Assembly (NCBI GenBank): GCA_963668475.1
Contig: OY764544.1
Span: 3,407,986 to 3,471,985, forward strand
Direction of reading: 5' to 3'
DNA: 64,000 nt
Source: an uncultured Methanospirillum sp.
Lineage (GTDB): Archaea > Halobacteriota > Methanomicrobia > Methanomicrobiales > Methanospirillaceae
The position numbers and the translations under genes were made by a program. The notes below the pieces were generated by a model, which had not been told where the DNA came from, made no database searches, and saw nothing but the letters and a program-made list of their open reading frames with translations. This document shows positions 2,779 through 54,800 of this stretch, piece by piece (positions within the stretch are counted from its first letter, which is position 1; every line of letters begins with the position of its first letter).

Positions 2779-2852
2779 GGGCCTGTGGTCTAGTTGGTTA
2801 TGACACCGCCTTTACACGGCGGAGGTCCGGAGTTCGAATCTCCGCGGGCCCA
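2779..2852 (+). tRNA. tRNA-Val (anticodon TAC), intronless, CCA not encoded
   Basis: Acceptor stem GGGCCTG/CGGGCCC plus discriminator A; D-arm TAGTTGGTTA; anticodon arm CCGCC-TTTACAC-GGCGG; T-loop GTTCGAATC. Confidence 0.97.
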
Positions 2853-6926: not shown

Positions 6927-8489
6927 ATGAATAATAATCTGGTAATTCTTTCAGTTTTGATGATCTGCCTGGTAATCGTTGGTATCTCTGCCGGTTCTTC
7001 TCAGAATGAATCACCATCAACAATAGTAAAGACAGATACTGGTTTAATATCGGGTTTTCATCAGGATAATATCCGTGTCTTTCATGGCATCCCATTCGCT
7101 GCACCACCAACCGGAGAACTACGATGGAAGCCCCCGGCACCTGTAACACCCTGGGAAGGTGTCAAAGAGACGAAGGAGTATTCTGCAACCTGCCCTCAAC
7201 GGGTTTCCACCGGTAAGACTCCTTCGTCAGGATCGGAGCCGCTCAACATGAGTGAGGACTGCTTATATCTCAATGTCTGGACCCCGGCAAAGAGTGATGA
7301 CGAAAAACTTCCGGTAATGGTCTTTTTCTATGGGGGAGGATTTGCTGATGTGGCTGGATCCATGCCTGTCTATAATGGGACCACCCTGGCTGAAAGAGGG
7401 GTTATCTTGGTCACCCCTAACTACCGGCTTGGAGCACTGGGTTTCCTTGCCCACCCGGAACTGGATGCCGAATCTATGCATAATAGTTCAGGAAATTATG
7501 GAATTCTCGATCAGATTGCTGCTCTTGAGTGGGTCCAGCGAAACATCGGATCGTTTGGGGGTGATCCGTCCAGGGTGACAATATTCGGGCAGTCAGCCGG
7601 CGGTGAAAGTGTTCTGATCCACCTGATAAGCCCGGAGAGTAAGGGCCTTTACCAGCAGGCAATTGTCCAGAGTGGTCCTTTCTGGGCAAACGGGGCCATC
7701 ATTAATGCCACCCATTCCAAGGAGAATGCTGAACAATTTGGTGAATGGTTTGCACAAAACCTTGGCTACTCCCGACCTGATGCCATTGAGCAGATGCGAA
7801 ATATCAGTCCCGAAGACCTGATCAATGCAACACCGTGGTCACCGTCCTCATTCCGGACTACCCACACGGTCATGTTTGAGCCAACAATTGATGGATGGGT
7901 TATCCCGGACACCCTGGACACCATGTTCCGTCTCCACCAGGAAAATGCGGTCCCTCTTATGATCGGGAACAACGCCAATGACGGAGCAACTCTTGCGGCT
8001 GATGCCAATATGACGGTTCCTGAGTACATATCTTTCCTTACAAACCGGTTCGGCGATGAGGCCGGTGTAGTTCTTGAAAAATATCCTGCGAATTCAACTT
8101 CAGAAGTGCAACTCCGACTGGCAGAGATCATGACCGATTATGATTTCAGTGATTCGGTGAAGTTTGCAGCTGGATCCATGGGGGACATCACCCCTGATAC
8201 GTATCTGTACCGGTATTCATATGTCATTCCCGGTCAGCCATCAGGTGCCTTTCATGGAAGTGAGACCTTACTGTTGTTCGGAGTTCCAGGAGTACCTTCA
8301 GATCCGGTAGTGGCCGGGAATGTGGTAGATCTCTGGACACGGTTTGCAAAGACCGGAGATCCAAACGGTGGAATGAATATCACCTGGCCGAATTACACCA
8401 AGAAGAAGGGTCAGTACCTTGATATCGATACAGTCCCGAGTGTGAAGAGCGATAATTCAACGAGTGCCCTGTTTCAAGACCTCGAATAA
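6927..8489 (+). CDS. Secreted type-B carboxylesterase/lipase (paralog 1)
   Basis: Signal peptide; GIPFAAPPTGELRW, SEDCLYLNVWTP, YGGG oxyanion region, nucleophile FGQSAGG, catalytic His in GAFHGSE. Confidence 0.95.
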   Translation: MNNNLVILSVLMICLVIVGISAGSSQNESPSTIVKTDTGLISGFHQDNIRVFHGIPFAAPPTGELRWKPPAPVTPWEGVKETKEYSATCPQRVSTGKTPSSGSEPLNMSEDCLYLNVWTPAKSDDEKLPVMVFFYGGGFADVAGSMPVYNGTTLAERGVILVTPNYRLGALGFLAHPELDAESMHNSSGNYGILDQIAALEWVQRNIGSFGGDPSRVTIFGQSAGGESVLIHLISPESKGLYQQAIVQSGPFWANGAIINATHSKENAEQFGEWFAQNLGYSRPDAIEQMRNISPEDLINATPWSPSSFRTTHTVMFEPTIDGWVIPDTLDTMFRLHQENAVPLMIGNNANDGATLAADANMTVPEYISFLTNRFGDEAGVVLEKYPANSTSEVQLRLAEIMTDYDFSDSVKFAAGSMGDITPDTYLYRYSYVIPGQPSGAFHGSETLLLFGVPGVPSDPVVAGNVVDLWTRFAKTGDPNGGMNITWPNYTKKKGQYLDIDTVPSVKSDNSTSALFQDLE

Positions 8490-8643: not shown

Positions 8644-10332
8644 ATGAAACCAAGGTTGGCAATAGGAATTTTGCTTGGAATAATCCTTTTAGGATGCATC
8701 GCTGGAGCCTATCCTATAGATTCAACAGTCGTAACAACCCTGAATCGTACTGTAATTCCTGTTGCCGTGCCTCTGGCATCACCTCAGATCCTTCCTGATG
8801 ATGTATCTAACTACTCGGTATATGGATATGGAGTATGGGAGTTTGGCGATGGACTTGGATATGAAAAGAGAACAGACCTGATGCCATCCGGGTACTCGGA
8901 TGTATCGGAGAACGGTTCTGCAAAACTGCTCCGTTTTTTTGACATTACTGATGTTCATATCACTGACAAAGAAACTCCCGCTCAAGGAATCTATTTCGGG
9001 TACAAAGGGGGTCAGTCATCAGGGTATTCACCGGTAATGCTCTCATCCACTCAGGTCCTTGATGCTGCTGTCCAGACCGTGAACGCCTTACATACCACAG
9101 ATCCTTTTGATTTTGGTATCGCTCTCGGTGACGTTGCCAACAACGAACAATACAATGAACTCAGATGGTTCATTGACGTCATGGACGGGAAAAGAATAAA
9201 TCCTGATTCAGGTGTCAAGGATGATCCAGTTCCCGGACCGCTGAATGATTATCAGGATGTGTACCAGGCAGCAGGACTGAACAAGTCGATACCCTGGTAT
9301 GAGGTTCTTGGCAATCACGATCACAACTGGATCGGAACAAACCCTCCTGATGATTACCTGAGATCGAACTATACCGGAGCGTATATCCTGAACATGGGTA
9401 ATATTTTCACCAATCCTCTGGGTATCAAGAGCCGTGGATTCTATATGGGTGCAATCGATGGCAGAACGGTGAATGGAGATATTATCGGAGTTGGAAATGT
9501 ATCTGATTTCAAAACACCTCCAAAAGTGCTGGCTGCCGATCCAAACCGCCGGGTCCTTACGGTTCCTGAATGGATGGGTGAATTTTTCAACACGACTTCT
9601 AATCCAAAAGGTCACGGATTCAACAAATCAGACGCTGAAAATGGTTTTGCATGTTATTCATTCGAACCGAAATCAGACGTTCCGATAAAGGTCATTGTGC
9701 TTGACGATACCCAGAACGCGAATGATACCAATGATGGCGGATATGGACATGGTTCCCTTGATAATGAGCGGTATACCTGGCTTGTACATGAACTGGATCA
9801 GGGTCAGGCTGAAGGTAAACTGATGATTATTGCTGCTCACATCCCGATAGCAACAGACGCGAGTGGTTCTTCCCTTGACGAATATACGGGGTGGAGTTCG
9901 GTTGCTCAGGTATCTGAGCAGCAACTCCTGGATACCCTGCATTCCTATCCAAATCTGATCCTGTGGATTGCAGGACATCGTCATGTCAATGCCATAACTC
10001 CGCAGATATCGCCGGATCCTGACCACCCGGAACTCGGATTCTGGGAGGTTGAAACCTCATCACTCCGTGATTTCCCGCAGCAGTTCAGAACCTTTGATAT
10101 TGTCCGGAACAGCGACAATACGATCTCTATCTTTGCAACCGATGTTGATCCGGCAGTAACAGATGGAACGATTGCTGCAAAGTCACGTTTCTACGCAGTG
10201 GCAGCAGATGAAATATTTAATAATACGCTTACGTATGAGCCAAGCGGGTCGTATAATGCAGAACTGGTCAAACAAGTAACTCCTGACATGCAGGAGAAGA
10301 TTCAGAATCTGGGAAATCCCCTGACCTCATAA
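8644..10332 (+). CDS. Secreted calcineurin-like metallophosphoesterase (resembles the RPA4764/TIGR03768 family)
   Basis: Signal peptide; metal-binding motifs DITDVH, GDVANN, GNHD, HIP and GHRH. Confidence 0.85.
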   Translation: MKPRLAIGILLGIILLGCIAGAYPIDSTVVTTLNRTVIPVAVPLASPQILPDDVSNYSVYGYGVWEFGDGLGYEKRTDLMPSGYSDVSENGSAKLLRFFDITDVHITDKETPAQGIYFGYKGGQSSGYSPVMLSSTQVLDAAVQTVNALHTTDPFDFGIALGDVANNEQYNELRWFIDVMDGKRINPDSGVKDDPVPGPLNDYQDVYQAAGLNKSIPWYEVLGNHDHNWIGTNPPDDYLRSNYTGAYILNMGNIFTNPLGIKSRGFYMGAIDGRTVNGDIIGVGNVSDFKTPPKVLAADPNRRVLTVPEWMGEFFNTTSNPKGHGFNKSDAENGFACYSFEPKSDVPIKVIVLDDTQNANDTNDGGYGHGSLDNERYTWLVHELDQGQAEGKLMIIAAHIPIATDASGSSLDEYTGWSSVAQVSEQQLLDTLHSYPNLILWIAGHRHVNAITPQISPDPDHPELGFWEVETSSLRDFPQQFRTFDIVRNSDNTISIFATDVDPAVTDGTIAAKSRFYAVAADEIFNNTLTYEPSGSYNAELVKQVTPDMQEKIQNLGNPLTS

Positions 10333-10537: not shown

Positions 10538-12064
10538 TTACGACTCACTCTTCACTGCTGGAACTGATCCAATATCCAGATAGGCTTCATCCTGGGTGTA
10601 CTTCGGCCAGGTGATATTCATTCCGCCGTTTGGATCACCGGTCTTTGCAAACCGAGTCCAGAGATCGATCATGTTCTCTCTGACTGAATCGGTTACCGGG
10701 TTTTGAGGTAGCGGGACGTTGAAGATGAGCATGGTCTCACTACCATGGAATGCACCAAAAGGTTGCCCGGGTAGGACATACGAGTACTGGTACCGGTAGG
10801 TGTCAGGGCTGATATTTGCCATGGATTTGGCGACAAACTTTACCGGGTCTGTAAAGTCGTAATCGGTCATGATCTGTTCCAGTCTGAGTTGGACTTCATC
10901 TGTGGAATTCGCAGGATATTTTTCGAGAATCGCACTGGACTCATTCCCAAACCTGCTCTGGATAAAGGTGCTGTACTCCGGAACTGTCATATTGGCACCA
11001 GCTGCAAGGGTGGTTCCGTCATCAGCATTGTTTCCGATGATTAGCGGGATTGGATTCTGACGGTTTTCACGAAACACCGTTTCAGGTGCTTCTGGTAGCA
11101 CCGAGCCGTCGATTGTCGGCTCAAAATGCGGGGTATTTACCATCTTAAACGAAGAAGCCGGCCAGGGTGTTGCATTGGTGATGTCCTGGTAACTCAGGTT
11201 ACGCATCTGCTCTATTGCGTCAGGGCCTGAAAACCCAAGGCTCTTCGCGTATGCGAGTCCAAGTTGCTCAGCATCAGATTTTGTATAGAGGGCATCAATC
11301 TCGGCACCTTTTGTCCAGAAGGTACCGCTCTCCACAATTGCCTGCTGATAAAGCCCTTTGGTCTGTGGATTTGCCAGATGAATAAGAATACTCTCTCCTC
11401 CGGCTGACTGCCCGAATATTGTCACCCTGGATGGATCACCCCCAAACGATCCGATGTTTCTCTGGACCCACTCCAGAGCAGCAATCTGGTCAAGGAGTCC
11501 GTAGTTACCAGAACTGTTCTGTATAGACTCTGCATCCAGTCCTGGGTGAGCAAGGAATCCCAGAGCACCTACCCGGTAATTGGGAGTGACCACAATGACT
11601 CCCTTCTGTGCAAGGGCAGTTCCGTTATACAGTGACATCGAACCTGCTATCTTTCCGAATGCTCCTCCATAGAAAAAGACCATAACCGGAAGTTTTTCGT
11701 CATCAGTCTTCGCCGGGGTCCAGACATTGAGATACAGACAGTCCTCACTCATGGACAGATTCGGATCTGCTGCAATCGGCTGGGGACAGGCAGGTGAAAA
11801 TGCCGTCGTTTCCCTGACACCTTCCCAGGGTGTTACCGGTTCGGGTGGCCTCCAGCGCAGTTCACCAGTCGGGGGAGTCGCGAATGGAATCCCAAGGTAT
11901 ACCCTGAGTCCGTCCTGATCTAATCCGGAGATTAGGCCGGCATCTGTTTTTACTACAATAGATGGCGATTCATTCTGTGATGATCCTGCAGAAATCCCGA
12001 CGATAACCAGGCAGACTATCAGGAAAAAACCAGTTTTCATTTGAGTGTTCATGTTATCCTCCAC
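10538..12064 (-). CDS. Secreted type-B carboxylesterase/lipase (paralog 2)
   Basis: Same motifs as paralog 1 (SEDCLYLNVWTP, FGQSAGG, GAFHGSE) and a shared N-terminus CLVIVGISAGSSQNESPS. Confidence 0.95.
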   Translation of the reverse strand: MEDNMNTQMKTGFFLIVCLVIVGISAGSSQNESPSIVVKTDAGLISGLDQDGLRVYLGIPFATPPTGELRWRPPEPVTPWEGVRETTAFSPACPQPIAADPNLSMSEDCLYLNVWTPAKTDDEKLPVMVFFYGGAFGKIAGSMSLYNGTALAQKGVIVVTPNYRVGALGFLAHPGLDAESIQNSSGNYGLLDQIAALEWVQRNIGSFGGDPSRVTIFGQSAGGESILIHLANPQTKGLYQQAIVESGTFWTKGAEIDALYTKSDAEQLGLAYAKSLGFSGPDAIEQMRNLSYQDITNATPWPASSFKMVNTPHFEPTIDGSVLPEAPETVFRENRQNPIPLIIGNNADDGTTLAAGANMTVPEYSTFIQSRFGNESSAILEKYPANSTDEVQLRLEQIMTDYDFTDPVKFVAKSMANISPDTYRYQYSYVLPGQPFGAFHGSETMLIFNVPLPQNPVTDSVRENMIDLWTRFAKTGDPNGGMNITWPKYTQDEAYLDIGSVPAVKSES

Positions 12065-39087: not shown

Positions 39088-40578
39088 ATGGGTATATTGA
39101 CCATATCCCGCAAATTATCAGTGATAGCGCTTATTTTGGTGCTATCATGTATTTGTATCACAAATGCGGACAGTCAGATCTGGAACATTTCATATGTCAA
39201 GGAACACATCCCGGGTGACATGATAGTCTCTGAAAAGAGTATCGAGGAGATGTTTAATCCACAGGTTGTTCCATATGAAGATGATTCCTCCTTTATTCAT
39301 GCGCTATCCGGTGATGGATTCACTGTGCAGCAGGGCGCAATGGCCAAAGTGGATCTTGTAAAATATGCAGAGTTCGGATTGATTCCTGATGCAGAAGGGA
39401 ATAATGCTGATAATCCGTATTACAGTATTGCACTCCCGAGATCTCCCGGTCAGACTGTCATAAATGATAATGAGTGTCCGAATGGTCTGAGTAGAAATGT
39501 CCGGTTAAATCCGGATGAGGCAGTCGTCTTAATCGGGAAAACGCCATCAAATGTAACCTTCTATAACTTCCCGTTGTTTATGATCTACCGTACAATACAG
39601 TCGGAGAGGGCGTTTTTATTCGGTGGCCTTGGTGATACTATCAACATCGGATCAGTCAAGGAGCAGACTGGATCATCAGATGGATTGGGTGTCCCGATTA
39701 TGATCATCTATTCTGCAGACAAAACCGTTGCAGAAAAGGTGAAGTCTGTAGCCGAAGCATCAGGGTATCCTGAAAGTATGATCACCATCATGGAGATCCC
39801 GTCACCCATGGTTCACATGGGACTTGCTGAAGATGACGACTCTTTTGCCTGTGGTATCAGAACTGCTGTATTCAGCAGCCCTCAAGCAAAACAGGACTAC
39901 ATGGACAATATTAACACCATGGTGAGAGGGTACCGGATCACACCGAATACGTCAGGATCTCTCGACCCATTCCCGGTTAAGGACCTGAGAGTGAGAGGAA
40001 CCGGAACTACCGAATTCGATCTCCTCCCGGCGGTTTCAAGACTTCGTGATGCCATCATCGAGGCATACCCAAATTGTTCATACAAGGAACCTGAAACCGG
40101 TATCGCCTTCCCTGAAAGTTCACAGGTGCTGCAGAACAATGAGAAGGCTTATGGAGAGAGCAGGGATGCTGCATACCTTGGAAGCCAGAACTTTACACTT
40201 CAGCCCGGAGAGTTTGCCATATCGTACGGAGTGAATCATATGGCGAGTGGAAAGGCGATATACAGTAATGTCGTAGCCTATGGGGCCGAAAAACTTAACG
40301 GAGTCGCTTCTGCTGACAGTACGGCATATACCGGGTCTGCTTCACGATATCTCAAGGATGACCCTGATGCAGATAAATTGTATACATACACCATCACAAG
40401 AGCCAACTCGACCGAACCGTACACCCTGGTTATTCCACAGGGACCATACTTACAGGGGATTCCAGTAAACCAGAAGATGTGGATCGGATGGAGGGCATAC
40501 ATGGAAGAGGAGACAAATGTCGGCCCCACGTATCCAGAACTCGTATATGACAAGGTCATTGTATTTACCCCGAAATAA
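39088..40578 (+). CDS. Secreted hypothetical protein (496 aa)
   Basis: Long ORF with a signal peptide ending TNA and normal codon usage; no family recognised. Confidence 0.8.
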   Translation: MGILTISRKLSVIALILVLSCICITNADSQIWNISYVKEHIPGDMIVSEKSIEEMFNPQVVPYEDDSSFIHALSGDGFTVQQGAMAKVDLVKYAEFGLIPDAEGNNADNPYYSIALPRSPGQTVINDNECPNGLSRNVRLNPDEAVVLIGKTPSNVTFYNFPLFMIYRTIQSERAFLFGGLGDTINIGSVKEQTGSSDGLGVPIMIIYSADKTVAEKVKSVAEASGYPESMITIMEIPSPMVHMGLAEDDDSFACGIRTAVFSSPQAKQDYMDNINTMVRGYRITPNTSGSLDPFPVKDLRVRGTGTTEFDLLPAVSRLRDAIIEAYPNCSYKEPETGIAFPESSQVLQNNEKAYGESRDAAYLGSQNFTLQPGEFAISYGVNHMASGKAIYSNVVAYGAEKLNGVASADSTAYTGSASRYLKDDPDADKLYTYTITRANSTEPYTLVIPQGPYLQGIPVNQKMWIGWRAYMEEETNVGPTYPELVYDKVIVFTPK

Positions 40579-41877: not shown

Positions 41878-41920
41878 TTTATAGAACTATAAGTCAATGC
41901 TAACTCACTATCGGGGAGGT
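41878..41920 (+). promoter_or_regulatory. Probable thermosome promoter (TTTATA) and RBS (GGAGGT)
   Basis: TTTATA at 41878-41883, GGAGGT at 41915-41920, ATG at 41927. Confidence 0.45.
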
Positions 41921-41926
41921 TCAATA

Positions 41927-43558
41927 ATGTCAACACAACTTGGTGGGCAGCCGATTTATATTCTTAAACAAGGCAGTTCCCGGAACCGGGGCCGTGATGC
42001 TCAAAGTATGAATATCACCGCTGCAAAGGCGGTTGCTAATGCGGTCCGTACTACACTTGGCCCGAAAGGGATGGATAAAATGCTTGTCGATTCGATAGGC
42101 GATGTGGTCATCACCAACGATGGATTTACTATCCTCAGTGAGATGGACATTGAACAACCGGCAGCGAAGATGATGGTGGAGATCGCGAAAACTCAGGACA
42201 CTGAAGTTGGCGATGGTACCACCACTGCGGTTGTTATTGCTGGAGAACTTCTCAAGCGTTCCGAAGACCTCATAGAACTTGGAATCCACCCGACTGTTAT
42301 CGTGCAGGGCTACCGGATGGCATCCGAGAAAGCCCAGGATATCCTCAAGGGTTTGGCGATATCAATGAAACCATCTGATACCGGCATACTTAAAAAGATA
42401 GCAGAGACAGCTATGGCTGGGAAAGGTTCAGAATCTGCAAATCTTTTACTCTGTGATCTTGTTTCAACGGCTGTTACCCGTGTCTCCGATTCAGATGGCT
42501 CGGTGGATATTGATAATATCAAGATTGAGAAAAAAGTTGGCGGGTCGATTGAAGACTCAGAAATTATCATGGGTATCGTTCTTGAAAAAGAGAGAGTCCA
42601 CCCGGGTATGCCTACAAAAATTACCAAAGCAAAAATTCTGCTTTTAAACGTTGGAGTTGAGTATAAAAAAACAGAAGTTGACGCTGAGATAACGATCACC
42701 CGGCCTGATCAGATGCAGGCCTTCATAAACGAAGAAGAACGGATGATCAAGAAGATTGCTGATGCGATTATCAAAACCGGAGCTAATGTGGTTATTAGTC
42801 AGAAGGCAATTGAAGACACAGCTCAGCATCAACTTGCAAAGGCTGGAATATTAGCTATCAGGCGGGTCAAAGGCAGTGACATGGACAAACTGGCTCTGGC
42901 TACCGGTGCTACCATTGTTTCAAGTATTGATGAAATATCTGTTAAAGAACTTGGATTTGCCGGGATAGTCGAGGAGCGAAAGATTCTGGGAGATGATATG
43001 ATTTTTATTGAGGAATGTAAAAACCCCAAAGCAGTCTCTATCATCATTCGCGGAGGAACAGAACATGTCATTGCAGAATATGGCCGTGCCATAGAAGATG
43101 CCGTTCGGGTAGTTTCCACTGTTCTTGAGGATAAGAAATTTGTTGCCGGTGGTGGTGCTCCTGAAATTGAGTTGTCTCTCCGTCTCAGGGAATACGGGTC
43201 TTCAGTAGGGGGTCGTGCCCAACTTGCTATCGAAGCCTTTGCTGCGTCGCTTGAGATTATTCCCCGGACTCTTGCAGAAAATGCAGGTCTTGACCCGATT
43301 GATATGATTGTTGCATTACGTGCTGCTCATGAGAAGGGTGAGACAACTTCCGGTCTGAATGTTTTCGAAGGAAAACCCGTGGATATGCTCAAAGAAGGAG
43401 TCATTGAGCCACTCCGGGTTAAAATCCAGGCCATTGTGAGTGCAACAGAAGCAGCAGGTATGATACTGAGAATTGATGATATTATCAAATCTGCAAAATC
43501 AGCAGCTCCGGCAATGCCACCGGGTGGTATGGGGGAGATGGGCGGAATGGGGATGTAA
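41927..43558 (+). CDS. ths: Thermosome subunit (group II chaperonin)
   Basis: [54 protein letters not shown] and a C-terminal GGM-repeat tail. Confidence 0.97.
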
Positions 43559-43750
43559 CTAGTCTCTCTATCAAAATTTACCTTTGTTTTGGTTCAAATT
43601 TGATCAATCCTATTTTCAATTTTTATTTTTGATCACAAGGTATAAGGAGAAGTAAACCTTCTCTCTATCCTAATAATAGAATAATTTTTTTATTTTTTGA
43701 TTTTTGGTTGTTTTTTCGAAAAATTGGAAAAATCGGGGAATTAAGAGGCG

Positions 43751-46700
43751 TTGAAAAAAATTTTTGTTTCTAGAAAAGAACATACGGATAAACTTTCGAA
43801 TCGCGAACAGATTGATAGGGGCCCCCTTCGTGACGAGCTCTTTAGCAGGGATCAACTGGAGAAGCATGCAAAGGAAATTGCAGGGTGCTATCGGGTTGAT
43901 ACCAGAAAAGGGGAGGATCGCCTTCTTCCACGACTTACCGATAATGAGCAGGTCCTGCTAAAAACTCACAAACTCCTCAATACTGTTATAGAAGAAAATT
44001 CTCCGGTTGCTCCTGCAGGTGAATGGCTCCTCGATAATTTTTACCTTGTTGAGGAGCAGATCAGAACCGCTCGTCTGCACCTTCCTGAAGAATACAGCAA
44101 AGAGCTTCCCCACCTCGCGAACGGACCGCTGGAAGGATATCCAAGGGTCTATCATATTGCACGAGAACTCATAGCCCACAGTGACGGCAGGATAGATACC
44201 GAAAACCTCTTTGCTTTTATCGATGCGTATCAACAGGTCACTCCTCTCAAACTTGGTGAACTCTGGGCAATTCCGATCATGTTCAGACTCGCGTTGATCG
44301 AGAATCTACGCAGAGTAGCCGACATTATATCTGAAAACCGGTCTGATCGCGATTCTGCCAATTACTGGGTGGATCGCATGACCCGAATGGCACAGCATGA
44401 TCCAAAAAGTCTCATTCTTGTAATAGCTGATATGGCCCGGTCGGATCCACCCCTGACCAGTGCATTTGTTGCTGAGATGTCACGCCAGTTACAGGGAAGT
44501 TCTGGTCCTCTATTATTTGCTCTTTCATGGATAGAGCAGCGGTTATCTGAAAAAAATCAGACCCCTGAACAGATGATCAGTGCAGAGATCCAGGCTCAGG
44601 CCGCTGATCAGGTCTCTTTTGGGAACAGCATAAGCAGCCTCCGCCTTCTTGATACAAGTGACTGGCGAACTTTTGTAGAACGGCTGAGTATTGTTGAGCA
44701 TACCCTTCGCAGTGATCCGGCAGATGAATATGCAGATATGGATTTTGAGACCCGGGACCGGTATCGCCATGTGGTTGAGGAGATTGCGAGGAATGGCGGG
44801 ATATCGGAAGATCTGGTTGCAGAAAAAGCGGTAGAACTTGCATCACTGGCCCGAAGCAGAGACAAGCAGAACGGAAGGGAGTCCCATCTTGGCTATTATC
44901 TGATAGATGACGGGAGGGAAGCACTGGAGAACGCACTTCTGTATCATGCTTCTGGTATCAGCCAGATCAAGAGATCTGGACTGGCTCATTTCTTTCCCCT
45001 CTATATCGGTGGTATCGTATCCATCACCCTCCTTGTTCTTTATGTTGTATTATCCAGATTCATCTTCTTAGACTGGTTCATTACTCTTCCGATTCTGATA
45101 CTGCTTCTATTTCCTGTCAGTCAGGCAGCAATGAACGTGATGAACTGGGCATGTACCCTGTTTTTCACGCCGGTCTCTCTTCCTAAGATGGACTATTCAA
45201 AAGGGATCCCGGGCAACAGAAGAACTGTCGTGGTTATTCCGACGGTTCTTTCAGGATTTTCAGATATTTCAAAGCTTCTTGATTCACTTGAGGTCAGATT
45301 TCTCGCAAATAAGGAGAAAAATCTCTACTTTACTCTACTTACTGATCTCAAAAATGCCCCTGCAGCACAGATGCCTGAAGATGAAAAACTGGTATCCCTG
45401 CTTTCGAGTGGGATTGAAAACCTGAATGAGAAATACCGGGAAGAAAACCCTGATACCTTTTTTCTCATGCACCGGAACCGTACCTACAGCCCGGGTGAAC
45501 GGATATTCATGGGATACGAACGGAAGAGAGGAATTCTCGAAGCGTTCAGTACCTTCCTGTCAGATCCCAAAGAAAATCAGTTCTCTCATGTCGCCGGCAA
45601 TCCTGATGTTCTTACTGATATCACATACGTGATAACGTTAGATACTGATACAGATCTCCCGAGAAATAGTGCACGAACTCTTATCGGAACGATTGCACAT
45701 CCCCTGAACAGGCCACAGATTGATCCAGAAATCCGGGTGATCAAAAAGGGATACGGAATTCTTCAGCCGCGTGTTGCAATCTCACTCTCTGAGTCAGGAA
45801 TTTCCCGGTTTGTATCACTCTTCGGTGGAGAACAAGGGATAGATCCGTATACCCGTGTCGTATCAGATCTGTACCAGGATGTATTCCATGAAGGATCGTT
45901 TATTGGAAAAGGGATCTATGATCTCGAAACATTTTCCCTGGCAGTGAAAGGCAGGTTTCCGGAAAACCTCATCTTAAGCCATGATCTTCTGGAAGGCTGC
46001 TATGCCAGGACAGGTCTTGTCAGTGATGTACAGGTCTTTGAAGAATATCCTATCAGTTATCTGACTGATATCATCCGGAGACACCGGTGGATTAGAGGCG
46101 ACTGGCAGATTCTCCCCTGGATTTTTTCATCTGTTCCTGACAGTTCATTTAAGAAACAGCAAAATCCCCTCTCTCTTCTCTCGCGGTGGAAGATCTTTGA
46201 TAATCTGAGAAGAAGCCTGATAGCCCCTGTTACCTTTCTCCTGTTTCTTCTTTCATGGACTATTCTAGAGGATTCACTCTTCTGGACTGGGTTTATCATA
46301 TCACTCTTCCTGATTCCCCCAGTAATCATTGTAACTCAAAAAATCATCCGAAAGCCTGGAGAGCATACCTGGAGGATGCATATCCATGATATGGGCCATG
46401 ATCTCCGGGTTCAGATTGCTGTCCCGCTGCTCACCCTTGCTTTCCTCCCCTTTGAAGCATACATCTCTCTTGATGCCATTGTTCGCTCCTGCTGGCGGAT
46501 GACGATCTCTCATCAGAACCTGCTTGAATGGACTACCCACCAGGAAGCAGGACAAATGGGCGTCTCTGATGTTTCAAGTTCATATCGTATTATGTGGCCT
46601 GCACCGGTTATCGGTGCAACATTATTCTTACTCGCAGGCATACTGCCTGTATCTTTCACTTTGTGCTGCATTCCTTTTGCCTGTGCATGGATCCTCTCCC

Positions 46701-49700
46701 CTATAGCAGCCTGGTGGATAAGCCAGCCGATAATATCCCGTACACTACCCCTTTCTCCTGAACAGAACCGATATTTGAGAAGAATTGCACGCAAAACATG
46801 GCGGTTTTTTGAGACTTTTGTCACCGCTGAAGATCATCATCTCCCCCCTGACAACTACCAGGAACAACCGGTTGAGGTTGTTGCTCACCGAACCTCTCCA
46901 ACAGACATCGGCCTTTCTCTCCTTGCAAATCTTACCGCCTATGACTTTGGTTACATTTCTGCTGGTGAGTTTTTGGATCGTACTCACAGTACCCTGACAA
47001 CCATGGGGAAACTGAAGAGATTCCGTGGTCATTTCTACAACTGGTATGACACGATAACATTAGAGCCCCTGCTTCCCAGGTACATCTCCACGGTTGATAG
47101 CGGTAATCTGGTCGGTGATCTGCTGGTGTTACGGCAGGGACTCTATGAACTTCCTGATCTGTCGGTTATTTCACAAAAATATTCCGAAGGGCTCTCTGAT
47201 GTGCTTCATCTCCTCATCGATGCACTGAAAGCGTCTGAAGAGAGCATGGGAGAAGTTCCGGTTCTTGTTCTATCAAAAATTGCGGATCTGAAGGAATCTT
47301 TGTTCCATATACCGGAAACGGCTCCCGAAATCAACCATTCTCTTTCTGATTTAAATGAGATGTCATCAGATCTTCTGGCTGAACTCTGTTCACATCCTGA
47401 TGAAGAAGTCAGGTGGTGGGCAGATGCAACCCGGCGACAGATAAAGAGTCATGAGGCTGAAGTAACCTCCTTTATTTCATGGGTATCCACCGGTTCTCAT
47501 CCTGACACGGTCTTCGATGAGATTCCTGCAGAACTTTCGCCCTCTCTCGCCCTTTTTCTGAAAAAATATGAGTCTCTGAGCAACCACATTCCAACATTTA
47601 GAGAAGAAGCTGATATCATAGAGGTTTTCCAACGTGATCTTGCTCCATTATTGGAGTGGGTTGCTACAGATAAAACTCCAGCCAATACGTCAGGTACCGG
47701 GTACCAATGGCTTGTTCGGACTATGGAAGAGATGCAAATCTCAAGTAAACGTGCCAAAGATCTCCTTTTGATGGTATCAAATCTTGCTGATGAATGTGAA
47801 ACATACTCCGATATTGAGTATGAGTTTCTGTATGATCAAACCAGCAAACTTCTTGCCATCGGGTATAATGCAACAGATCTCAAACGTGATGCCAGTTTTT
47901 ATGATCTCCTGGCATCTGAAGCACGACTTGCCAGTTTTATCGGAATTGCCAGGGGAGACCTTCCCCAGGAGCACTGGTTTGCGTTAGGACGGCTGCTCAC
48001 GACCGTTGGAAAGGGAAGATCAACGCTCATCTCCTGGAGTGGTTCGATGTTTGAATACCTTATGCCACTCCTTCTGATGCCAAATTATGAGAATACTCTT
48101 CTGGATCGCACCTACCGTGCTGTGGTTACCAGGCAGATCGAATATGGAAGACAGAGGAATGTTCCATGGGGGATATCAGAATCAGGCTATAATATCATTG
48201 ATGCAAGCCAGAACTACCAGTACCGTGCATTCGGAGTTCCGGGGCTTGGATTTAAGCGTGGTCTTTCTGAAGATCTGGTCATTGCTCCCTATGCTAGTGT
48301 GATGGGTCTGATGGTTCATCCATCGTTAACCTATATGAATCTGAAGGAGATGGAATCGCTTGGATATTCAGGGACATACGGGTTTTATGAAGCTGTTGAC
48401 TTTACCCCTTCACGAATTCCTCCAGGCCAGAATCATACAATCGTGAAATCCTTCATGGTACATCACCAGGGGATGGCTCTGCTCTCGCTTGCGTATATCC
48501 TTCTTAATCGCCCGATGCAAAGGCGATTTGAATCTGATCCATCCCTTAAGGCAACCCTGATGCTTCTTCAGGAGAAGATGCCCCGAATTACTCCCTTCTA
48601 TCCACATACCGGTGATGTGCAGGGTGTTCATAAGAAGAATGGGGATGCGGAGTCACTCATGCGAATCTTTCAGACTGCACATACACCACGACCTGAAGTA
48701 CACCTTCTCTCGAACGGGCATTACCATGTGATGGTAAATAATAGCGGATCGGGATATAGCAGATGGAACGATCTTGCGGTAACCAGGTGGCGGGAAGATC
48801 CGACCGCAGACAACTTGGGAACCTTCTGTTACATCAGGGATCTTGCAAGTGGAGAGTTCTGGTCAAATGGGTATCAGCCCACAAAAAAGAATCCCGAAAC
48901 CTTTCAAACGACATTTAAACAGGCACGTGCTGAATTCAGAAGACGTGACCGGGAGTTTGATACCCGTACAGAGATCATCGTTTCTCCTGAAGATGATGTG
49001 GAACTTCGACGAATACGGGTAACAAACCGGTCATGGAAACGAAGGACTCTGGAATTTACCAGTTATGCTGAAGTGGTCCTGGCTCCTCAGACATCTGATG
49101 AATCACATCCGGCATTCAGTAACCTGTTTGTTCAGACTGAACTTCTTCAGGAGAAGAATGCAATCATAGCCACAAGAAGGCCACGATCAGAGGATGAAAA
49201 GCCGCCATGGATGCTTCATCTCATGACTGTTCATGGCACCGTGGTTCGAAAGATCTCATTCGAGACAGTCAGGGCTAATTTTATCGGGAGGACAAATTCT
49301 CTCTCAAATCCTGCTGCCATGACTGATTCATCTGTCCTTTCAAACTCATCAGGTTCTGTGCTTGATCCCGTGGTTGCGATCAGATGTACTATCATACTGG
49401 ATCCACAGGAGACTGCAGGGGTGAATATTTTCACCGGAGTTAGTGAGAGCCGGGATAAATCGGTCGCCCTTGTTGACAAGTATTATGACAGTTACATCGC
49501 TGATCGTGTCTCCGAGCTTGCCTGGACACATGCTCAGGTTGTACTCAAACAATTGAATGCAACAGAGAGGGATGCCCGACTGTTTGGGAGTCTTGCTTCA
49601 TCGATTATCTATGCTCATCCTTCGCGTAGGGCGAGCCAGAAGGTACTGGAAAAGAACTCCCGTGGGCAGTCAGGTCTGTGGGGGTATGGAATATCAGGAG

Positions 49701-52537
49701 ACGTACCCATAGTTCTGGTGCGAATTCAACATCAGAGCGGGATTGGTCTGATAAAAGAGATGGTTCAGGCCCATGAGTACTGGCGAATAAAAGGCCTGAT
49801 GGTTGATCTGGTGATCTGGAATGAGGAACAGTCAGGTTACAGGCAGGAACTGCATGATGAGATCATGCGTCAGATTCCCCAGGGTTCTGATCATCCCCAA
49901 TTAAATCAGAAAGGGGGCATCTTCATACGACATATGGAACAGATGTCAGATGAGGATCGTATCCTGATTCAGACCGTGGCACGGGCAATAATTTCTGATC
50001 GGAGGGGCAGTCTTGCGATACAACTCGACCGGCCTGGCTGGATTGTAACTCCTGTACCTGAACTTATCCCAACCAGGGAATCAATTCATGAGAATGATCC
50101 AGGGATCAGCATTTCTGGTGAAGACCTTCTCTATTTCAACGATATTGGGGGATTTTCGCCTGATGGAAAGGAGTACATCATCTTCACCGGGAAAGGAAAG
50201 GTAACTCCGGCACCCTGGGTAAATGTCCTGGCAAATGAGAATTTTGGGACCGTGATATCAGAGAGTGGGAGTGCTTACACCTGGAGTGAGAATGCCCATG
50301 AGTTCAGACTTACTCCCTGGACAAACGATCCGGTCTCTGATCCCTCTGGTGAGGCCCTGTATATCAGGGATGAAGAAACCGGTAGGTTCTGGTCTCCAAC
50401 TCCCTTACCCGTCAGAGGGCATAACAATTATAAAACCAGGCATGGATTTGGCTATTCAATCTTTGAATACTCAGGATATGGGATTTATACCACACTAACA
50501 GTCTCTGTATCGCTTGATAATCAGGTAAAATTCCTCTCTCTCCGTGTGAAGAATCAGTCAGGACAGTCCCGTATCCTCTCGGTAACCTGCTATGTTGAAT
50601 GGGTTTTAGGAGAACTCAGGTCTCGATCACTGCCCTATGTAATATCAGAGATAGATCCGGTTACCGGAGCAATCTTTGCTAAAAATCCATATAATTCTGA
50701 ATTTCCTGGACGGGTTGCCTTTCTTGACTCAAATGTCCTAAGCAGAACTATTACCGGCGACCGGTATGAATTCATCGGGCGGAACCGTTCGATGGAAAAA
50801 CCTGCAGCAATGGAGCAGGAACGGCTCTCCAACAAAGTCGGAGCAGGTCTTGACCCGTGTGCGGCTCTCCAGGTCTTATGTGACCTAGTCGATGGTGAGG
50901 AACGTGAGATCATCTTTACCCTCGGACTCGGTCGTGATGAGGAAGATGCACGAAGTCTTGTTCTCCGCAGTCGCGGGATTACAACTGCACGTGCATCACT
51001 GAAAGCGGTACAGGAGTTCTGGGCATCAACGCTTGGTGCTGTGAATATTGCGACACCTGATCCCTCTGTGGATCTTCTTGTCAACGGGTGGCTTCTCTAT
51101 CAGACTATTGTCTCCCGCCTCTGGGCACGTTCTGGTTTTTATCAGTCAGGAGGAGCGTTTGGATTTCGGGATCAACTACAGGATGTGATGGCTCTTATCC
51201 ATGCTAAACCAGATCTTGCAAGAAGACAGATCCTCCTCTGTGCCGGGCATCAGTTTTCAGAAGGTGATGTGCAGCACTGGTGGCATCCGCCTATTGGTCG
51301 TGGAGTGAGGACTCACTGTTCTGATGATTATTTATGGCTCCCGTATGTAACCTCTAGGTATGTAACCGGGACCCGTGATTTTGGGATTCTTGACGAAATG
51401 GCTCCTTTTCTTGAAGGGAGAGAACTACTCCCTGACGAGGACTCATATTATGATCTCCCTGGAATCTCCGGATCAGCAGATACGCTCTATGAACATTGTG
51501 TCCGGGCCATCAGGTCAGGACTGATGGTTGGTGTTCATGGCCTTCCGTTGATGGGAACCGGAGACTGGAACGATGGAATGAATCTTGTCGGGGCAGGAGG
51601 GCAGGGAGAGAGTGTATGGCTCGGATTTTTCCTCTATGATCTGCTTACACGGTTTGCCAGGATCTCTACGCTTCACAACGATCCAAAATTTGCAGAATAT
51701 TGCCAGGTATATGCTGATCAGTTGAGGGAAAGCCTTGAGAAAAATGGGTGGGACGGGGAATGGTACCGCCGTGCCTATTTCGATTCAGGACAGCCACTCG
51801 GATCTTCAATCAATCAGGAATGCAGGATAGATTCAATCGCCCAGAGTTGGTCTGTCCTCTCGGGTGCTGGATCAACAGAGAGGACTGTCTCTGCAATGAA
51901 AGCAGTAGGCACTCATCTTATCAGATCCGATGATGGGCTGGTATCTCTCTTTACCCCTCCGTTTGATTCATCGCTCATGAATCCCGGGTACATTAAAGGA
52001 TATGTGCCCGGCGTCAGAGAAAACGGAGGGCATTACTCCCATGCAGCCATCTGGGTTGCAATGGCATTTGCTATGCTAAAGGATCACGAACAGGCCTGGA
52101 AACTGCTGTCGTTTATCAGCCCGATTAATCATTGTAAAACTCATCATGATGTTCTAAAATACCGGGTTGAGCCGTATGTTGTTGCATCTGATATCTATAC
52201 TGCTCCTCCCTACTCAGGACGTGGAGGCTGGACCTGGTATTCTGGATCTGCCGGCTGGATGTATACACTGATTATTGAATCTCTACTCGGACTTGAGATA
52301 CATGGCGATCAAATGGCATTCAATCCCTGTATCCCTGAGGTCTGGAAATCATACCGGATTTATTTAAGATACAAGTCTTCCAGATATCATATCTCTGTCA
52401 TAAAGGCCGGTCCGGGATCAGCAGTAAAATCGGTGAGTGTTGAGGGAAAAACTCAGTCTGATAAAATGGTACATCTTGTTGATGATGGGGGGGATCGTCA
52501 GGTTGTGGTAGAGCTTGGTGATACATCCCTATTATAG
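43751..52537 (+). CDS. ndvB: Cyclic beta-1,2-glucan synthase homolog (GT84, cyclisation/glycoamylase-like domain, GH94 phosphorylase)
   Basis: 2928 aa. Motifs EWLLDNFYL, GYERKRG.L, YVITLDTDT, LSHDLLEG, RRHRWIRGDWQ, membrane segments, YDLLASEARL, SWSGSMFEYLMP, PWG.SES, QSGGAFGFRDQLQD, GTGDWNDGMN, ENGG.YSHAA.W and GGWTWYSGSAGW. Confidence 0.95.
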   Translation: MKKIFVSRKEHTDKLSNREQIDRGPLRDELFSRDQLEKHAKEIAGCYRVDTRKGEDRLLPRLTDNEQVLLKTHKLLNTVIEENSPVAPAGEWLLDNFYLVEEQIRTARLHLPEEYSKELPHLANGPLEGYPRVYHIARELIAHSDGRIDTENLFAFIDAYQQVTPLKLGELWAIPIMFRLALIENLRRVADIISENRSDRDSANYWVDRMTRMAQHDPKSLILVIADMARSDPPLTSAFVAEMSRQLQGSSGPLLFALSWIEQRLSEKNQTPEQMISAEIQAQAADQVSFGNSISSLRLLDTSDWRTFVERLSIVEHTLRSDPADEYADMDFETRDRYRHVVEEIARNGGISEDLVAEKAVELASLARSRDKQNGRESHLGYYLIDDGREALENALLYHASGISQIKRSGLAHFFPLYIGGIVSITLLVLYVVLSRFIFLDWFITLPILILLLFPVSQAAMNVMNWACTLFFTPVSLPKMDYSKGIPGNRRTVVVIPTVLSGFSDISKLLDSLEVRFLANKEKNLYFTLLTDLKNAPAAQMPEDEKLVSLLSSGIENLNEKYREENPDTFFLMHRNRTYSPGERIFMGYERKRGILEAFSTFLSDPKENQFSHVAGNPDVLTDITYVITLDTDTDLPRNSARTLIGTIAHPLNRPQIDPEIRVIKKGYGILQPRVAISLSESGISRFVSLFGGEQGIDPYTRVVSDLYQDVFHEGSFIGKGIYDLETFSLAVKGRFPENLILSHDLLEGCYARTGLVSDVQVFEEYPISYLTDIIRRHRWIRGDWQILPWIFSSVPDSSFKKQQNPLSLLSRWKIFDNLRRSLIAPVTFLLFLLSWTILEDSLFWTGFIISLFLIPPVIIVTQKIIRKPGEHTWRMHIHDMGHDLRVQIAVPLLTLAFLPFEAYISLDAIVRSCWRMTISHQNLLEWTTHQEAGQMGVSDVSSSYRIMWPAPVIGATLFLLAGILPVSFTLCCIPFACAWILSPIAAWWISQPIISRTLPLSPEQNRYLRRIARKTWRFFETFVTAEDHHLPPDNYQEQPVEVVAHRTSPTDIGLSLLANLTAYDFGYISAGEFLDRTHSTLTTMGKLKRFRGHFYNWYDTITLEPLLPRYISTVDSGNLVGDLLVLRQGLYELPDLSVISQKYSEGLSDVLHLLIDALKASEESMGEVPVLVLSKIADLKESLFHIPETAPEINHSLSDLNEMSSDLLAELCSHPDEEVRWWADATRRQIKSHEAEVTSFISWVSTGSHPDTVFDEIPAELSPSLALFLKKYESLSNHIPTFREEADIIEVFQRDLAPLLEWVATDKTPANTSGTGYQWLVRTMEEMQISSKRAKDLLLMVSNLADECETYSDIEYEFLYDQTSKLLAIGYNATDLKRDASFYDLLASEARLASFIGIARGDLPQEHWFALGRLLTTVGKGRSTLISWSGSMFEYLMPLLLMPNYENTLLDRTYRAVVTRQIEYGRQRNVPWGISESGYNIIDASQNYQYRAFGVPGLGFKRGLSEDLVIAPYASVMGLMVHPSLTYMNLKEMESLGYSGTYGFYEAVDFTPSRIPPGQNHTIVKSFMVHHQGMALLSLAYILLNRPMQRRFESDPSLKATLMLLQEKMPRITPFYPHTGDVQGVHKKNGDAESLMRIFQTAHTPRPEVHLLSNGHYHVMVNNSGSGYSRWNDLAVTRWREDPTADNLGTFCYIRDLASGEFWSNGYQPTKKNPETFQTTFKQARAEFRRRDREFDTRTEIIVSPEDDVELRRIRVTNRSWKRRTLEFTSYAEVVLAPQTSDESHPAFSNLFVQTELLQEKNAIIATRRPRSEDEKPPWMLHLMTVHGTVVRKISFETVRANFIGRTNSLSNPAAMTDSSVLSNSSGSVLDPVVAIRCTIILDPQETAGVNIFTGVSESRDKSVALVDKYYDSYIADRVSELAWTHAQVVLKQLNATERDARLFGSLASSIIYAHPSRRASQKVLEKNSRGQSGLWGYGISGDVPIVLVRIQHQSGIGLIKEMVQAHEYWRIKGLMVDLVIWNEEQSGYRQELHDEIMRQIPQGSDHPQLNQKGGIFIRHMEQMSDEDRILIQTVARAIISDRRGSLAIQLDRPGWIVTPVPELIPTRESIHENDPGISISGEDLLYFNDIGGFSPDGKEYIIFTGKGKVTPAPWVNVLANENFGTVISESGSAYTWSENAHEFRLTPWTNDPVSDPSGEALYIRDEETGRFWSPTPLPVRGHNNYKTRHGFGYSIFEYSGYGIYTTLTVSVSLDNQVKFLSLRVKNQSGQSRILSVTCYVEWVLGELRSRSLPYVISEIDPVTGAIFAKNPYNSEFPGRVAFLDSNVLSRTITGDRYEFIGRNRSMEKPAAMEQERLSNKVGAGLDPCAALQVLCDLVDGEEREIIFTLGLGRDEEDARSLVLRSRGITTARASLKAVQEFWASTLGAVNIATPDPSVDLLVNGWLLYQTIVSRLWARSGFYQSGGAFGFRDQLQDVMALIHAKPDLARRQILLCAGHQFSEGDVQHWWHPPIGRGVRTHCSDDYLWLPYVTSRYVTGTRDFGILDEMAPFLEGRELLPDEDSYYDLPGISGSADTLYEHCVRAIRSGLMVGVHGLPLMGTGDWNDGMNLVGAGGQGESVWLGFFLYDLLTRFARISTLHNDPKFAEYCQVYADQLRESLEKNGWDGEWYRRAYFDSGQPLGSSINQECRIDSIAQSWSVLSGAGSTERTVSAMKAVGTHLIRSDDGLVSLFTPPFDSSLMNPGYIKGYVPGVRENGGHYSHAAIWVAMAFAMLKDHEQAWKLLSFISPINHCKTHHDVLKYRVEPYVVASDIYTAPPYSGRGGWTWYSGSAGWMYTLIIESLLGLEIHGDQMAFNPCIPEVWKSYRIYLRYKSSRYHISVIKAGPGSAVKSVSVEGKTQSDKMVHLVDDGGDRQVVVELGDTSLL

Positions 52538-53659
52538 AGAATAGTGCAAAACCCTCTTTTTTATCTAAGTGCGTAGAATAATAAGTATGAATTTTACATC
52601 ATTTTTCCTTTCTCAAAACTATCAAAAAGTAGCTGCACTCGGAAATCGTTTAGGGCTAATTGAAGAAATAATCGATTGGGAGCAATTCAGGCCAATTATC
52701 GGAGATATTTTCAATGATGACCTTATTGATGGTGGTAGACCCCATACAGATGAGATAATTTTGATCAAACTTTTAGTTCTTCAACAGTGGCATGGACTCA
52801 CTGATTACGAATTAGAAATCCAAGCCCTCGATAGGGCATCTTTCCAACATTTTTTGGGTTATCCTGAATCAATTCCGGATCGATCTACTATTTGGAGATT
52901 CCGAGAGAGATTGATCAAAAACAACAAGGAAGAGGCAATATGGATGGAACTTCAGAGACAGATAGATGAAAGGGGTTTAACCATTAAACGAGGTATGATT
53001 CAAGATGCTACATTTATCCTTTCTGATCCGGGCCATGCTAAATCGGATAAACCACGAGGTGATGAAGCGAAAACGAGAAGATCGAAAGATGGAACTTGGG
53101 TAAAGAAAGGTCAAAAATCACACTTTGGGTATAAACTCCATACAATAGTTGATAAAGAAACTCAACTTATACGACGGTTTGCTACGACTACAGCAAGTCT
53201 ACATGATAGCCAGATCGACCTTTCTGAACCTGGTGAAACTGTATATCGAGATCGAGGTTACTTTGGTACAACTGTGAGGGGCTCAATGGATAAAACAATG
53301 AAGAAAGCAACTCGTAATCACCCAATCTCTACCAAAGACAAACGAAGAAATAAAGCAATATCAAGGGTTCGTTCTCTTGTTGAAAGGCCATATGCAGTGA
53401 TTAAAAGAGTCTTCCATGCTGGTCATATGATGGTAACAACAGTTGAGAGAGTCAACCTAAAAAATATGTTTACGTGCTTTTCTTATGACCTATATCGGAT
53501 GAGTGGAATTCAACAAAGTTGATTGGATAGCGATAGCTATCTTCTTCCAGCCGGACAAATTTTAAATAAAAGCACATTTAGTCATTTTTTCTTAAAAAAT
53601 CAAACGTCTGAATAAGATCTCAAAAAAGTTATGGTAATCTGGGGTTAATCGCTATCCTC
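52537..53659 (+). mobile_element. Complete IS5-family insertion sequence, 1123 bp, with a 4-bp TATA target-site duplication
   Basis: Imperfect TIRs GAGAATAGTGCAAAACCC / GGGTTAATCGCTATCCTC (13/18). TATA at 52533-52536 and 53660-53663. Confidence 0.9.
52587..53522 (+). CDS. IS5-family DDE transposase
   Basis: GGRP......KLL.LQQW.GL.D.ELE....DR.SF..FLG....IPD.STIWRFRERL; catalytic IQDATF, YRDRGY and RSLVERP. Confidence 0.95.
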   Translation: MNFTSFFLSQNYQKVAALGNRLGLIEEIIDWEQFRPIIGDIFNDDLIDGGRPHTDEIILIKLLVLQQWHGLTDYELEIQALDRASFQHFLGYPESIPDRSTIWRFRERLIKNNKEEAIWMELQRQIDERGLTIKRGMIQDATFILSDPGHAKSDKPRGDEAKTRRSKDGTWVKKGQKSHFGYKLHTIVDKETQLIRRFATTTASLHDSQIDLSEPGETVYRDRGYFGTTVRGSMDKTMKKATRNHPISTKDKRRNKAISRVRSLVERPYAVIKRVFHAGHMMVTTVERVNLKNMFTCFSYDLYRMSGIQQS

Positions 53660-53753
53660 TATAATTGAGATCCCTGGCTTATGTTCTGATATTCTGGATG
53701 TGGTGCCAAAAATGATGAAAAAAGAACATTCATGCAATGATGATCTGTATTGA

Positions 53754-54035: not shown

Positions 54036-54307
54036 ACTCCCAATCAGTCTTACTTCCCTTTAATTGTTATTGCAGTACGGTACACTATGTACATTTCAGA
54101 TCTCATCAGTCACTTTCGAGATGTAAAATACACATAGTTGTGAACTCACACATTAGGGAGCAGGCTATCAGGTTTAGTGCACTATTATCCCAGATCGAAA
54201 AAATAGGGCAGAATTCATGAATATTTTATATCACATTTCTGATTCTAAAATCTGTTTTTCAATGCCCATACTATATGCCCTCATTGCAATACAGTAAATG
54301 ATAAAAT

Positions 54308-54787
54308 ATGAAAACGCTTGATCAGATAAAATCGTATAAACCTGAAGAAATTAGTTGGGTTGACTTCGTAATGGTATTACTAATCTTCTTCTCCATGACC
54401 TCTTTTATCTTTATTGGAATATTAAACCTGGTTTCTGTGTACATGTCTATCTTTGTATTTTTTAGTGGGCTTGACGGACCAATAACTGATACCCGAATAT
54501 TAGGAATTATTAGTACAACTCTTTTGACGATCATAATTGTAGAACTCTATATAACTGTAAAAGAACTTAAAAATGGTAATATTGATATTAAACTGATTTT
54601 AATTATTGGGTTGACTGCAATAATCAGACATTTTATACTGTTGATATCGCAGGATTTTAGTGAAAAGGATGTATTTGCCATGATTGGACTTGCAGTTGTT
54701 ATGATGTTGTTTATATTCGGGTTATGGATTGTCAAAAGTAGAAATATTGATAGTATCTCCAATATCTGGGCCCCTGTCAAAAAATAA
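54308..54787 (+). CDS. PsiE (phosphate-starvation-inducible E)-family membrane protein
   Basis: Four TM helices and the motif LL.II..EL..TV......I....IL.I.L.AIIR..I; strongly AT-rich. Confidence 0.75.
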   Translation: MKTLDQIKSYKPEEISWVDFVMVLLIFFSMTSFIFIGILNLVSVYMSIFVFFSGLDGPITDTRILGIISTTLLTIIIVELYITVKELKNGNIDIKLILIIGLTAIIRHFILLISQDFSEKDVFAMIGLAVVMMLFIFGLWIVKSRNIDSISNIWAPVKK

Positions 54788-54800
54788 AATAGTTACAGGT

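Follow-up and report, generated by a model that had tools for sequence, protein, structure and literature searches.

A putative full-length synthase of cyclic beta-1,2-glucans, of probable bacterial ancestry, in Methanospirillum and other methanogens

In the literature consulted, cyclic beta-1,2-glucans figure as bacterial compounds that serve in adaptation to hypo-osmotic conditions and in interaction with hosts, and no publication on an archaeal Cgs or on cyclic glucans of archaea was found. The closest described system is the synthase for cyclic beta-1,2-glucan (Cgs or ChvB) of Agrobacterium tumefaciens, represented by the structures 8RF0, 8RF9, 8RFE and 8RFG, with orthologues in Brucella abortus (Cgs) and Sinorhizobium meliloti (NdvB). 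Its key residues are D624, D626 and D739 in the glycosyltransferase (GT) domain, the autoglucosylated primer tyrosine Y694, which sits in the IF1h loop, and D2393 and D2528 in the GH94 domain (PMC10901819). The cyclase residues E1300 and E1386 correspond to E1356 (acid/base) and E1442 (nucleophile) of TiCGS from Thermoanaerobacter italicus (PMC11842490). TiCGS (8WY1) is the founding member of GH189 and was characterised as an isolated domain. A third related group, the GH94 cellobiose, chitobiose and cellodextrin phosphorylases (2CQS, 3QDE and 1V7V), consists of free-standing, soluble, catabolic enzymes. Here we describe cgs, which encodes a putative full-length Cgs in a 64-kb stretch of an uncultured Methanospirillum sp. 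(contig OY764544.1), referred to below as the window.

The window contains an uninterrupted open reading frame (ORF) of 2928 amino acids (aa), exactly as proposed in a previous sequence-only reading of this DNA (Table 1). Its TTG start is closely preceded by GAGG, and the AT-rich intergenic region upstream presumably contains the promoter and the ribosome-binding site. Homologues align from residue 2-25 onwards, and the Methanoculleus and Methanothrix orthologues likewise begin with TTG. In a phmmer search against the PDB, the protein retrieved full-length A. tumefaciens Cgs (8rf0/8rf9) with 2014 bits and E=0, a score that places the match far above chance. The alignment is collinear over residues 60-1164 and 1342-2899 of the query. 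The same search retrieved the cyclization domain of T. italicus (8wy1, 4e-132) and cellobiose/chitobiose phosphorylases; the last 800 aa match GH94 phosphorylases from end to end (1e-75 to 1e-85).

Pfam domains stand in the order expected for Cgs: a Glycoamylase-type domain at residues 1383-1581, two GH94 supersandwich stretches, the best at 1646-1896 (PF06165, 5e-172), and the GH94 catalytic domain at 2423-2847 (PF17167, 2.5e-116). The GH94 region contains two supersandwich domains and a catalytic (alpha/alpha)6 domain. NCBIfam holds no specific model for the 2928-aa protein. A simple Kyte-Doolittle hydropathy scan detected six transmembrane (TM)-like segments (~410-432, 440-464, 821-841, 845-867, 947-967 and 967-990), which form three hydrophobic pairs (410-464, 821-867 and 947-990) placed as expected for the six TM helices of Cgs. 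The membrane segments, the cyclisation-type domain and the GH94 motifs named in the sequence-only reading were all recovered in this way. Cgs proteins are single chains of ~2800-2900 aa with the order N-terminal domain (NTD), GT84 with TM helices, cyclase and GH94, and this four-part architecture is present at full length in the window protein, together with every feature by which Cgs, GT84, GH189 and GH94 can be recognised in a sequence. Unlike in the phosphorylases, the GH94 part is fused to the synthase, as a putative length-control/scaffold module.

None of the eight residues defined by experiment is missing from the window protein, which has the three aspartates of GT84, the primer tyrosine, the two glutamates of GH189 and the two aspartates of GH94. 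They were mapped through sub-region alignments to PDB chains and through motif positions, and the alignment check of catalytic residues suggested earlier was thereby passed. The GT motifs named in the sequence-only reading were found again as TLDTDT, SHD and RRHRW (residues 776-780), the last being the xRW motif of GT84. The LLASE and WGISE motifs are shared with TiCGS; the catalytic aspartate of GDWND and the arginine and aspartate of GFRD are shared with the GH94 phosphorylases. Conservation extends beyond the window: wherever a Methanomicrobiales or Methanothrix homologue covers one of the eight positions, the residue is unchanged, the primer tyrosine being kept in 15/15 Methanomicrobiales and 2/2 Methanothrix sequences. 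One difference from A. tumefaciens Cgs lies in the linker before the cyclase, which spans 178 aa in the window protein (residues 1164-1342) against ~98 aa aligned in 8rf0 and is longer than in most bacteria.

Table 1. Position of cgs and its neighbours in the window, with the parts and key residues of the encoded protein
Feature	Coordinates	Strand	Residues of window protein	Basis
Thermosome (group II chaperonin), archaeal host marker	41897..43558	+		Pfam Cpn60_TCP1, 1e-181
AT-rich intergenic region, thermosome to cgs	43559..43750	+		Sequence reading
cgs ORF, TTG start, uninterrupted	43751..52537	+	2928 aa	ORF listing
N-terminal cytoplasmic domain (Cgs NTD/TPR-like domain)	43751..44977	+	1-409	Aligned to 8rf0 from residue 60
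TM-like hydrophobic pair 1-2	44978..45142	+	410-464	Kyte-Doolittle scan
GT84 glycosyltransferase loop	45188..46195	+	~480-815	Alignments to 8rf0/8rf9
TM-like hydrophobic segments 3-6	46211..46720	+	821-990	Kyte-Doolittle scan
Cyclization (GH189 transglycosylase) domain	46748..48670	+	~1000-1640	8wy1 match, 4e-132
GH94 phosphorylase region	48686..52534	+	1646-2928	Pfam and PDB alignments
IS4/IS5-superfamily insertion sequence, 1123 bp	52537..53659	+		X6 comparison, Pfam
Transposase ORF of the insertion sequence	52569..53522	+		Pfam DDE_Tnp_1 and DUF772
PsiE-family gene, downstream neighbour of cgs	54308..54787	+		Pfam
GT84 active site (A. tumefaciens D624/D626)			D631/D633	Motif TLDTDT at residues 629-634
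Primer tyrosine (A. tumefaciens Y694)			Y700	Motif GIDPYT (GIDPYV in A. tumefaciens)
GT84 active site (A. tumefaciens D739)			D745	Motif SHD at residues 743-745
Cyclase acid/base (A. tumefaciens E1300, Ti E1356)			E1390	Motif LLASE
Cyclase nucleophile (A. tumefaciens E1386, Ti E1442)			E1477	Motif WGISE
GH94 (A. tumefaciens D2393)			D2474, beside R2473	Motif GFRD
GH94 catalytic (A. tumefaciens D2528)			D2608	Motif GDWND

By homology, then, the gene is a genuine and conserved archaeal Cgs, and more than the oddity of one genome. We consider it probable that it works like the bacterial enzyme and is of bacterial origin. By analogy with the A. tumefaciens and Brucella enzymes, the protein would sit in the cytoplasmic membrane with six helices and have each of its catalytic domains on the cytoplasmic side. 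The GT84 domain would glucosylate Tyr700 from uridine diphosphate glucose (UDP-glucose) in a self-priming step and then elongate a beta-1,2 chain, whose length would be set through phosphorolysis by the C-terminal GH94 domain. The GH189 domain, with E1390 as acid/base and E1477 as nucleophile, would finally join the chain into a ring of ~17-25 glucoses and so release it, through intramolecular transglycosylation. The glucan would probably either stay in the cytoplasm or be moved by an unlinked transporter to a periplasm-like space beneath the sheath or S-layer, with a role in adaptation to low osmolarity. It should be added that we infer the substrate, product, expression and glucan location of the archaeal Cgs.

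Homologues of cgs were found in other methanogens. A Methanothrix metagenome-assembled genome (MAG; L057) contains a full 2922-aa ORF and a Methanoculleus MAG (L161) one of 2968 aa, with 68.7% identity. In a Methanotrichaceae MAG (L170), one frameshift near 12924-12973 breaks cgs (6581-15374 on a 210-kb contig) into a 2130-aa and a 763-aa ORF, through either an indel of the assembly or decay to a pseudogene; the syntenic copy of L057 is intact. A search of a database of 5.8 billion proteins with a 650-aa query listed only fragments of at most 1133 aa, from which the distribution is not readable. One NCBI fragment (P0001, Methanoregulaceae archaeon, 65% identity) is named "cyclic beta 1-2 glucan synthetase, partial", so that the earlier guess of homologues already annotated in other methanogens proved right. 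The gene is an ordinary orthologue already named by annotation pipelines, and its novelty lies in unexplored physiology, not in its sequence.

The distribution was instead read from a peptide of the clade, MLLQEKMP, which the three known sequences from Methanomicrobiales share and 107 others lack. It was back-translated to DNA and scanned over 185,579 species-representative genomes. Cgs is encoded at 24 of the 76 matches, all 24 in Methanomicrobiales; the other 52 are chance matches without Cgs. The 24 loci show 63-92% identity to the window in long uninterrupted high-scoring segment pairs. Among them, M. lacunae Ki8-1 (91.7%) and M. stamsii Pt1 (69.3%) are represented by complete genomes, and five Methanospirillum MAGs contribute six contigs; there are also ten Methanoregula/Methanoregulaceae loci, as well as loci from Methanospirillaceae, Methanoculleus, Methanomicrobiaceae and Methanogenium. 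The two complete genomes and the annotated fragment P0001 fall in the same clade and carry the same residues.

Methanospirillum and Methanothrix are sheathed, and a correlation between cgs and the sheath was considered. It was dropped, as cgs also occurs in Methanoregula, Methanoculleus and Methanogenium, which to our knowledge have no sheath. Two cgs lineages are present in Methanospirillum, type A with 84-92% identity to the window (as in M. lacunae) and type B with 63-69% (as in M. stamsii). The Methanospirillum MAG OWC_0038 contains one contig of each type (L259 and L269; cf. L288 and L298), which suggests paralogues or a mixed bin.

The phylogeny was examined with a neighbour-joining tree of 132 sequences and 50 bootstraps. 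The 25 Methanomicrobiales Cgs are monophyletic (50/50). Within them, a hungatei/lacunae lineage, type A (50/50), stands beside the broader type B (31/50). The window copy belongs to type A and is the only one with an insertion sequence (IS) at its stop codon. The sister of the Methanomicrobiales clade, also with 50/50, and the nearest Cgs among bacteria is a locus in an Elusimicrobiota single-cell genome (L003, 9998-18757) whose flanks are bacterial (DUF481, DUF748). The Methanothrix clade joins this group weakly (30/50). Both archaeal clades and the Elusimicrobiota sequence have a pre-cyclase linker of 173-179 aa, compared with 121-148 aa elsewhere, and the whole group is nested within bacterial diversity. 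The most economical reading would be an old transfer from bacteria into an ancestor within Methanomicrobiales, with a later split into two lineages, vertical descent and duplication or exchange within the order. Such an event would have moved an 8.8-kb single-gene pathway from bacteria to archaea in anaerobic syntrophic habitats. As a separate observation, the Methanoculleus locus L161 encodes a phosphofructokinase (PFK)-family protein and then phosphoglycerate kinase after cgs (15649-18111), and the Elusimicrobiota locus has a PFK-family gene ~8 kb upstream of cgs; this may reflect a link to sugar phosphates or be a coincidence.

A bacterial relationship also raises the suspicion that the segment stems from contaminating bacterial DNA or from a chimeric assembly. 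The protein-seeded genome scans were saturated by bacteria on universal motifs, and the best non-archaeal homologues among the matches listed were bacterial, with 41-57% identity. The closest relatives are nevertheless the archaeal sequences described above. The thermosome gene ends 190 bp upstream of cgs, and among genomes it is most similar to Methanospirillum MAGs (77%), with Methanoregulaceae ranking next. On the other side, the adjacency of cgs and PsiE is conserved in the genus, in M. lacunae (L288, 88.7% identity) and in a Methanospirillum MAG (L265, 80%). The codon usage of cgs differs from that of the rest of the window by a distance of 0.036, the lowest of 21 genes tested (longer genes tend to score lower), and its GC content at third codon positions (GC3), 0.438, is in the middle of the host range. 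By comparison, the adjacent IS transposase deviates (distance 0.135, GC3 0.283). In public runs from two independent studies, single contigs (34 kb and 28.5 kb) span 40000-58000 with 0 differences, and cgs lies at the same place in a third organism with ~98% nucleotide identity. Sister strains and complete Methanospirillum genomes carry the gene too. Because the flanks are archaeal, the codon usage is host-like and the contigs of two studies are identical, contamination or chimerism is excluded, and the contamination check proposed beforehand was negative. In a search for a counterpart of this site that lacks cgs, 80 thermosome-anchored archaeal loci were compared, and none of them showed synteny.

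The IS at the stop codon is another feature particular to the window. The contig of the related strain X6 joins position 52532 straight to 53660 and skips 1127 bp, which are therefore an insertion in the window. The element has imperfect terminal inverted repeats, GAG[A/G]ATAG[T/C]G, and is flanked by a 4-bp target duplication, TATA, at 52533-52536 and 53660-53663. The insertion point coincides with the stop codon of cgs, where TAA became TAG, and the reconstructed empty site encodes the identical 2928-aa protein. The IS is absent from X6; in M. lacunae and another Methanospirillum MAG, PsiE directly follows cgs without an IS. In sludge libraries, pieces with 92-97% identity to the IS reach a depth far above that of its flanks, suggesting many copies or many hosts.

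Several points weigh against an archaeal Cgs that works like the bacterial enzyme. The identity of the product rests entirely on homology, the phylogeny is of the neighbour-joining type only, and the native 3' flank of cgs has been displaced by the IS. No gene for an exporter, a beta-1,2-glucanase, a UDP-glucose pyrophosphorylase or a glucan-modifying enzyme is linked to cgs in the window or in the archaeal loci with wide flanks (L057, L161 and L170). The complementary DNA (cDNA) metatranscriptomes X31-33 yielded thermosome fragments only, and cgs was not detected in them. The supplements of Methanospirillum omics and envelope papers make no mention of the protein. Neither glucan nor glycosyltransferase 36 nor cellobiose phosphorylase is named in the Methanospirillum genome, envelope, proteome and transcriptome papers. 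Sludge and sediment libraries labelled 'RNA-Seq' (X25-28) contain cgs-like contigs at about thermosome depth; these libraries look like DNA, because X25, X26 and X28 hold contigs of 137-144 kb.

The transcript missing from the cDNA metatranscriptomes, the IS abutting the stop codon and the frameshifted Methanotrichaceae homologue would fit a horizontally transferred gene that survives only as a silent or decaying relic, with the 3' IS as a sign of relaxed importance. However, an 8.8-kb ORF without one internal stop, codon usage that is fully host-like and intact long alignments at all 24 Methanomicrobiales loci speak for a maintained gene, and the IS does not alter the protein and is missing from sister strains. 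Selection could be estimated from strain X6, which differs from the window by 31 substitutions over 45301-47400, a 2.1-kb sample of cgs. They affect 16 codons with synonymous and 14 with nonsynonymous change, against 497 synonymous and 1600 nonsynonymous sites, giving a ratio of nonsynonymous to synonymous rates (dN/dS) of ~0.28 over the sample (binomial p = 4e-4 for the synonymous excess). The gene is under purifying selection, and the copy is intact and selectively maintained. We regard the relic explanation as quite improbable. M. lacunae, M. stamsii and the source of the window, all of them cultivable methanogens, carry an intact, fully equipped and selected putative synthase, and whether archaea make cyclic glucans, and in which place these end up, is directly testable with cultured organisms.

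Bacterial Cgs products are exported by ATP-binding cassette (ABC) transporters of the ChvA/NdvA/Cgt type. No ABC exporter is encoded in the 64-kb window, and none is adjacent to cgs in L057, L161 and L170. The sequence-only reading had also reported this absence and had combined it with the premise that archaea lack a Gram-negative periplasm. The absence held, but its weight did not, and the premise is too strong for this organism. A crude screen detected an ORF resembling an ABC half-transporter, with a transmembrane and a nucleotide-binding domain, within 10 kb of cgs in only 1/38 bacterial loci. As 37 of the 38 have no linked exporter, the lack of one here says almost nothing about an exporter elsewhere in the genome. 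Cryo-electron tomography of M. hungatei has revealed two periplasm-like spaces, termed PS-1 and PS-2, of which one separates membrane from S-layer and the other S-layer from sheath (PMC11641113), and therefore a destination compartment for the glucan exists.

The same evidence bears on the possibility that the enzyme is active but has been repurposed, making a beta-1,2-glucan that is linear or anchored to protein, or else a ring of another size, for example as an envelope or sheath glycan or as a cytoplasmic carbon store, in place of the free cyclic glucan that Proteobacteria have in the periplasm. The archaeal loci examined contain no linked exporter or modification genes, the linker between the GT/TM part and the cyclase is longer in the archaeal clades and their Elusimicrobiota sister than in other bacteria, and the archaeal envelope, as in M. 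hungatei, is built unlike that of diderms, with S-layer and sheath in place of an outer membrane. On the other hand, exporters are equally unlinked in nearly all bacterial loci, and cyclization and length control are arguably retained, because both cyclase glutamates and the length-control aspartate of GH94 are invariant across the archaeal clade. Repurposing is an unlikely explanation in our view. An archaeal Cgs acting as its bacterial counterpart does accommodate an extended proposal, which we put forward tentatively and consider possible rather than probable: Methanomicrobiales (Methanospirillum, Methanoregula, Methanoculleus and Methanogenium) and Methanothrix might make cyclic beta-1,2-glucans and place them in the periplasm-like spaces beneath their S-layer or sheath, as an osmoregulated 'periplasmic' glucan or as a mediator of contact with syntrophic bacteria, by means of an exporter unrelated to or unlinked from NdvA/Cgt. 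If true, cyclic glucan biology would be known for the first time from outside Bacteria.

The remaining neighbours of cgs include HVO_0163-type helix-turn-helix (HTH) proteins and many PAS/histidine-kinase and chemotaxis genes. One of the latter (54801-58436, minus strand) encodes a 1211-aa fusion of CheB methylesterase, CheR methyltransferase, PAS domains and a histidine-kinase ATPase. Relatives with 45% identity are found beside cgs in two bacterial loci (L005 and L059), which is probably a coincidence. Upstream of the thermosome gene, strain X6 has ~1000 nt in place of the ~100 nt at 40587-40688; this indel polymorphism is located at the 3' end of a 496-aa ORF (39088..40578) without a Pfam match. 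In the region 6927-12064, a 562-aa ORF (8644..10332), also without a Pfam match, lies between two paralogues of the carboxylesterase family, 6927..8489 (+) and 10538..12064 (-). Near the start of the window (2001-6000), tRNA-Val (2779..2852) is followed by a stretch of low GC content (0.36-0.39 compared with ~0.44), and an excisionase-like HTH_17 protein is encoded just upstream; this may be an integrated element.

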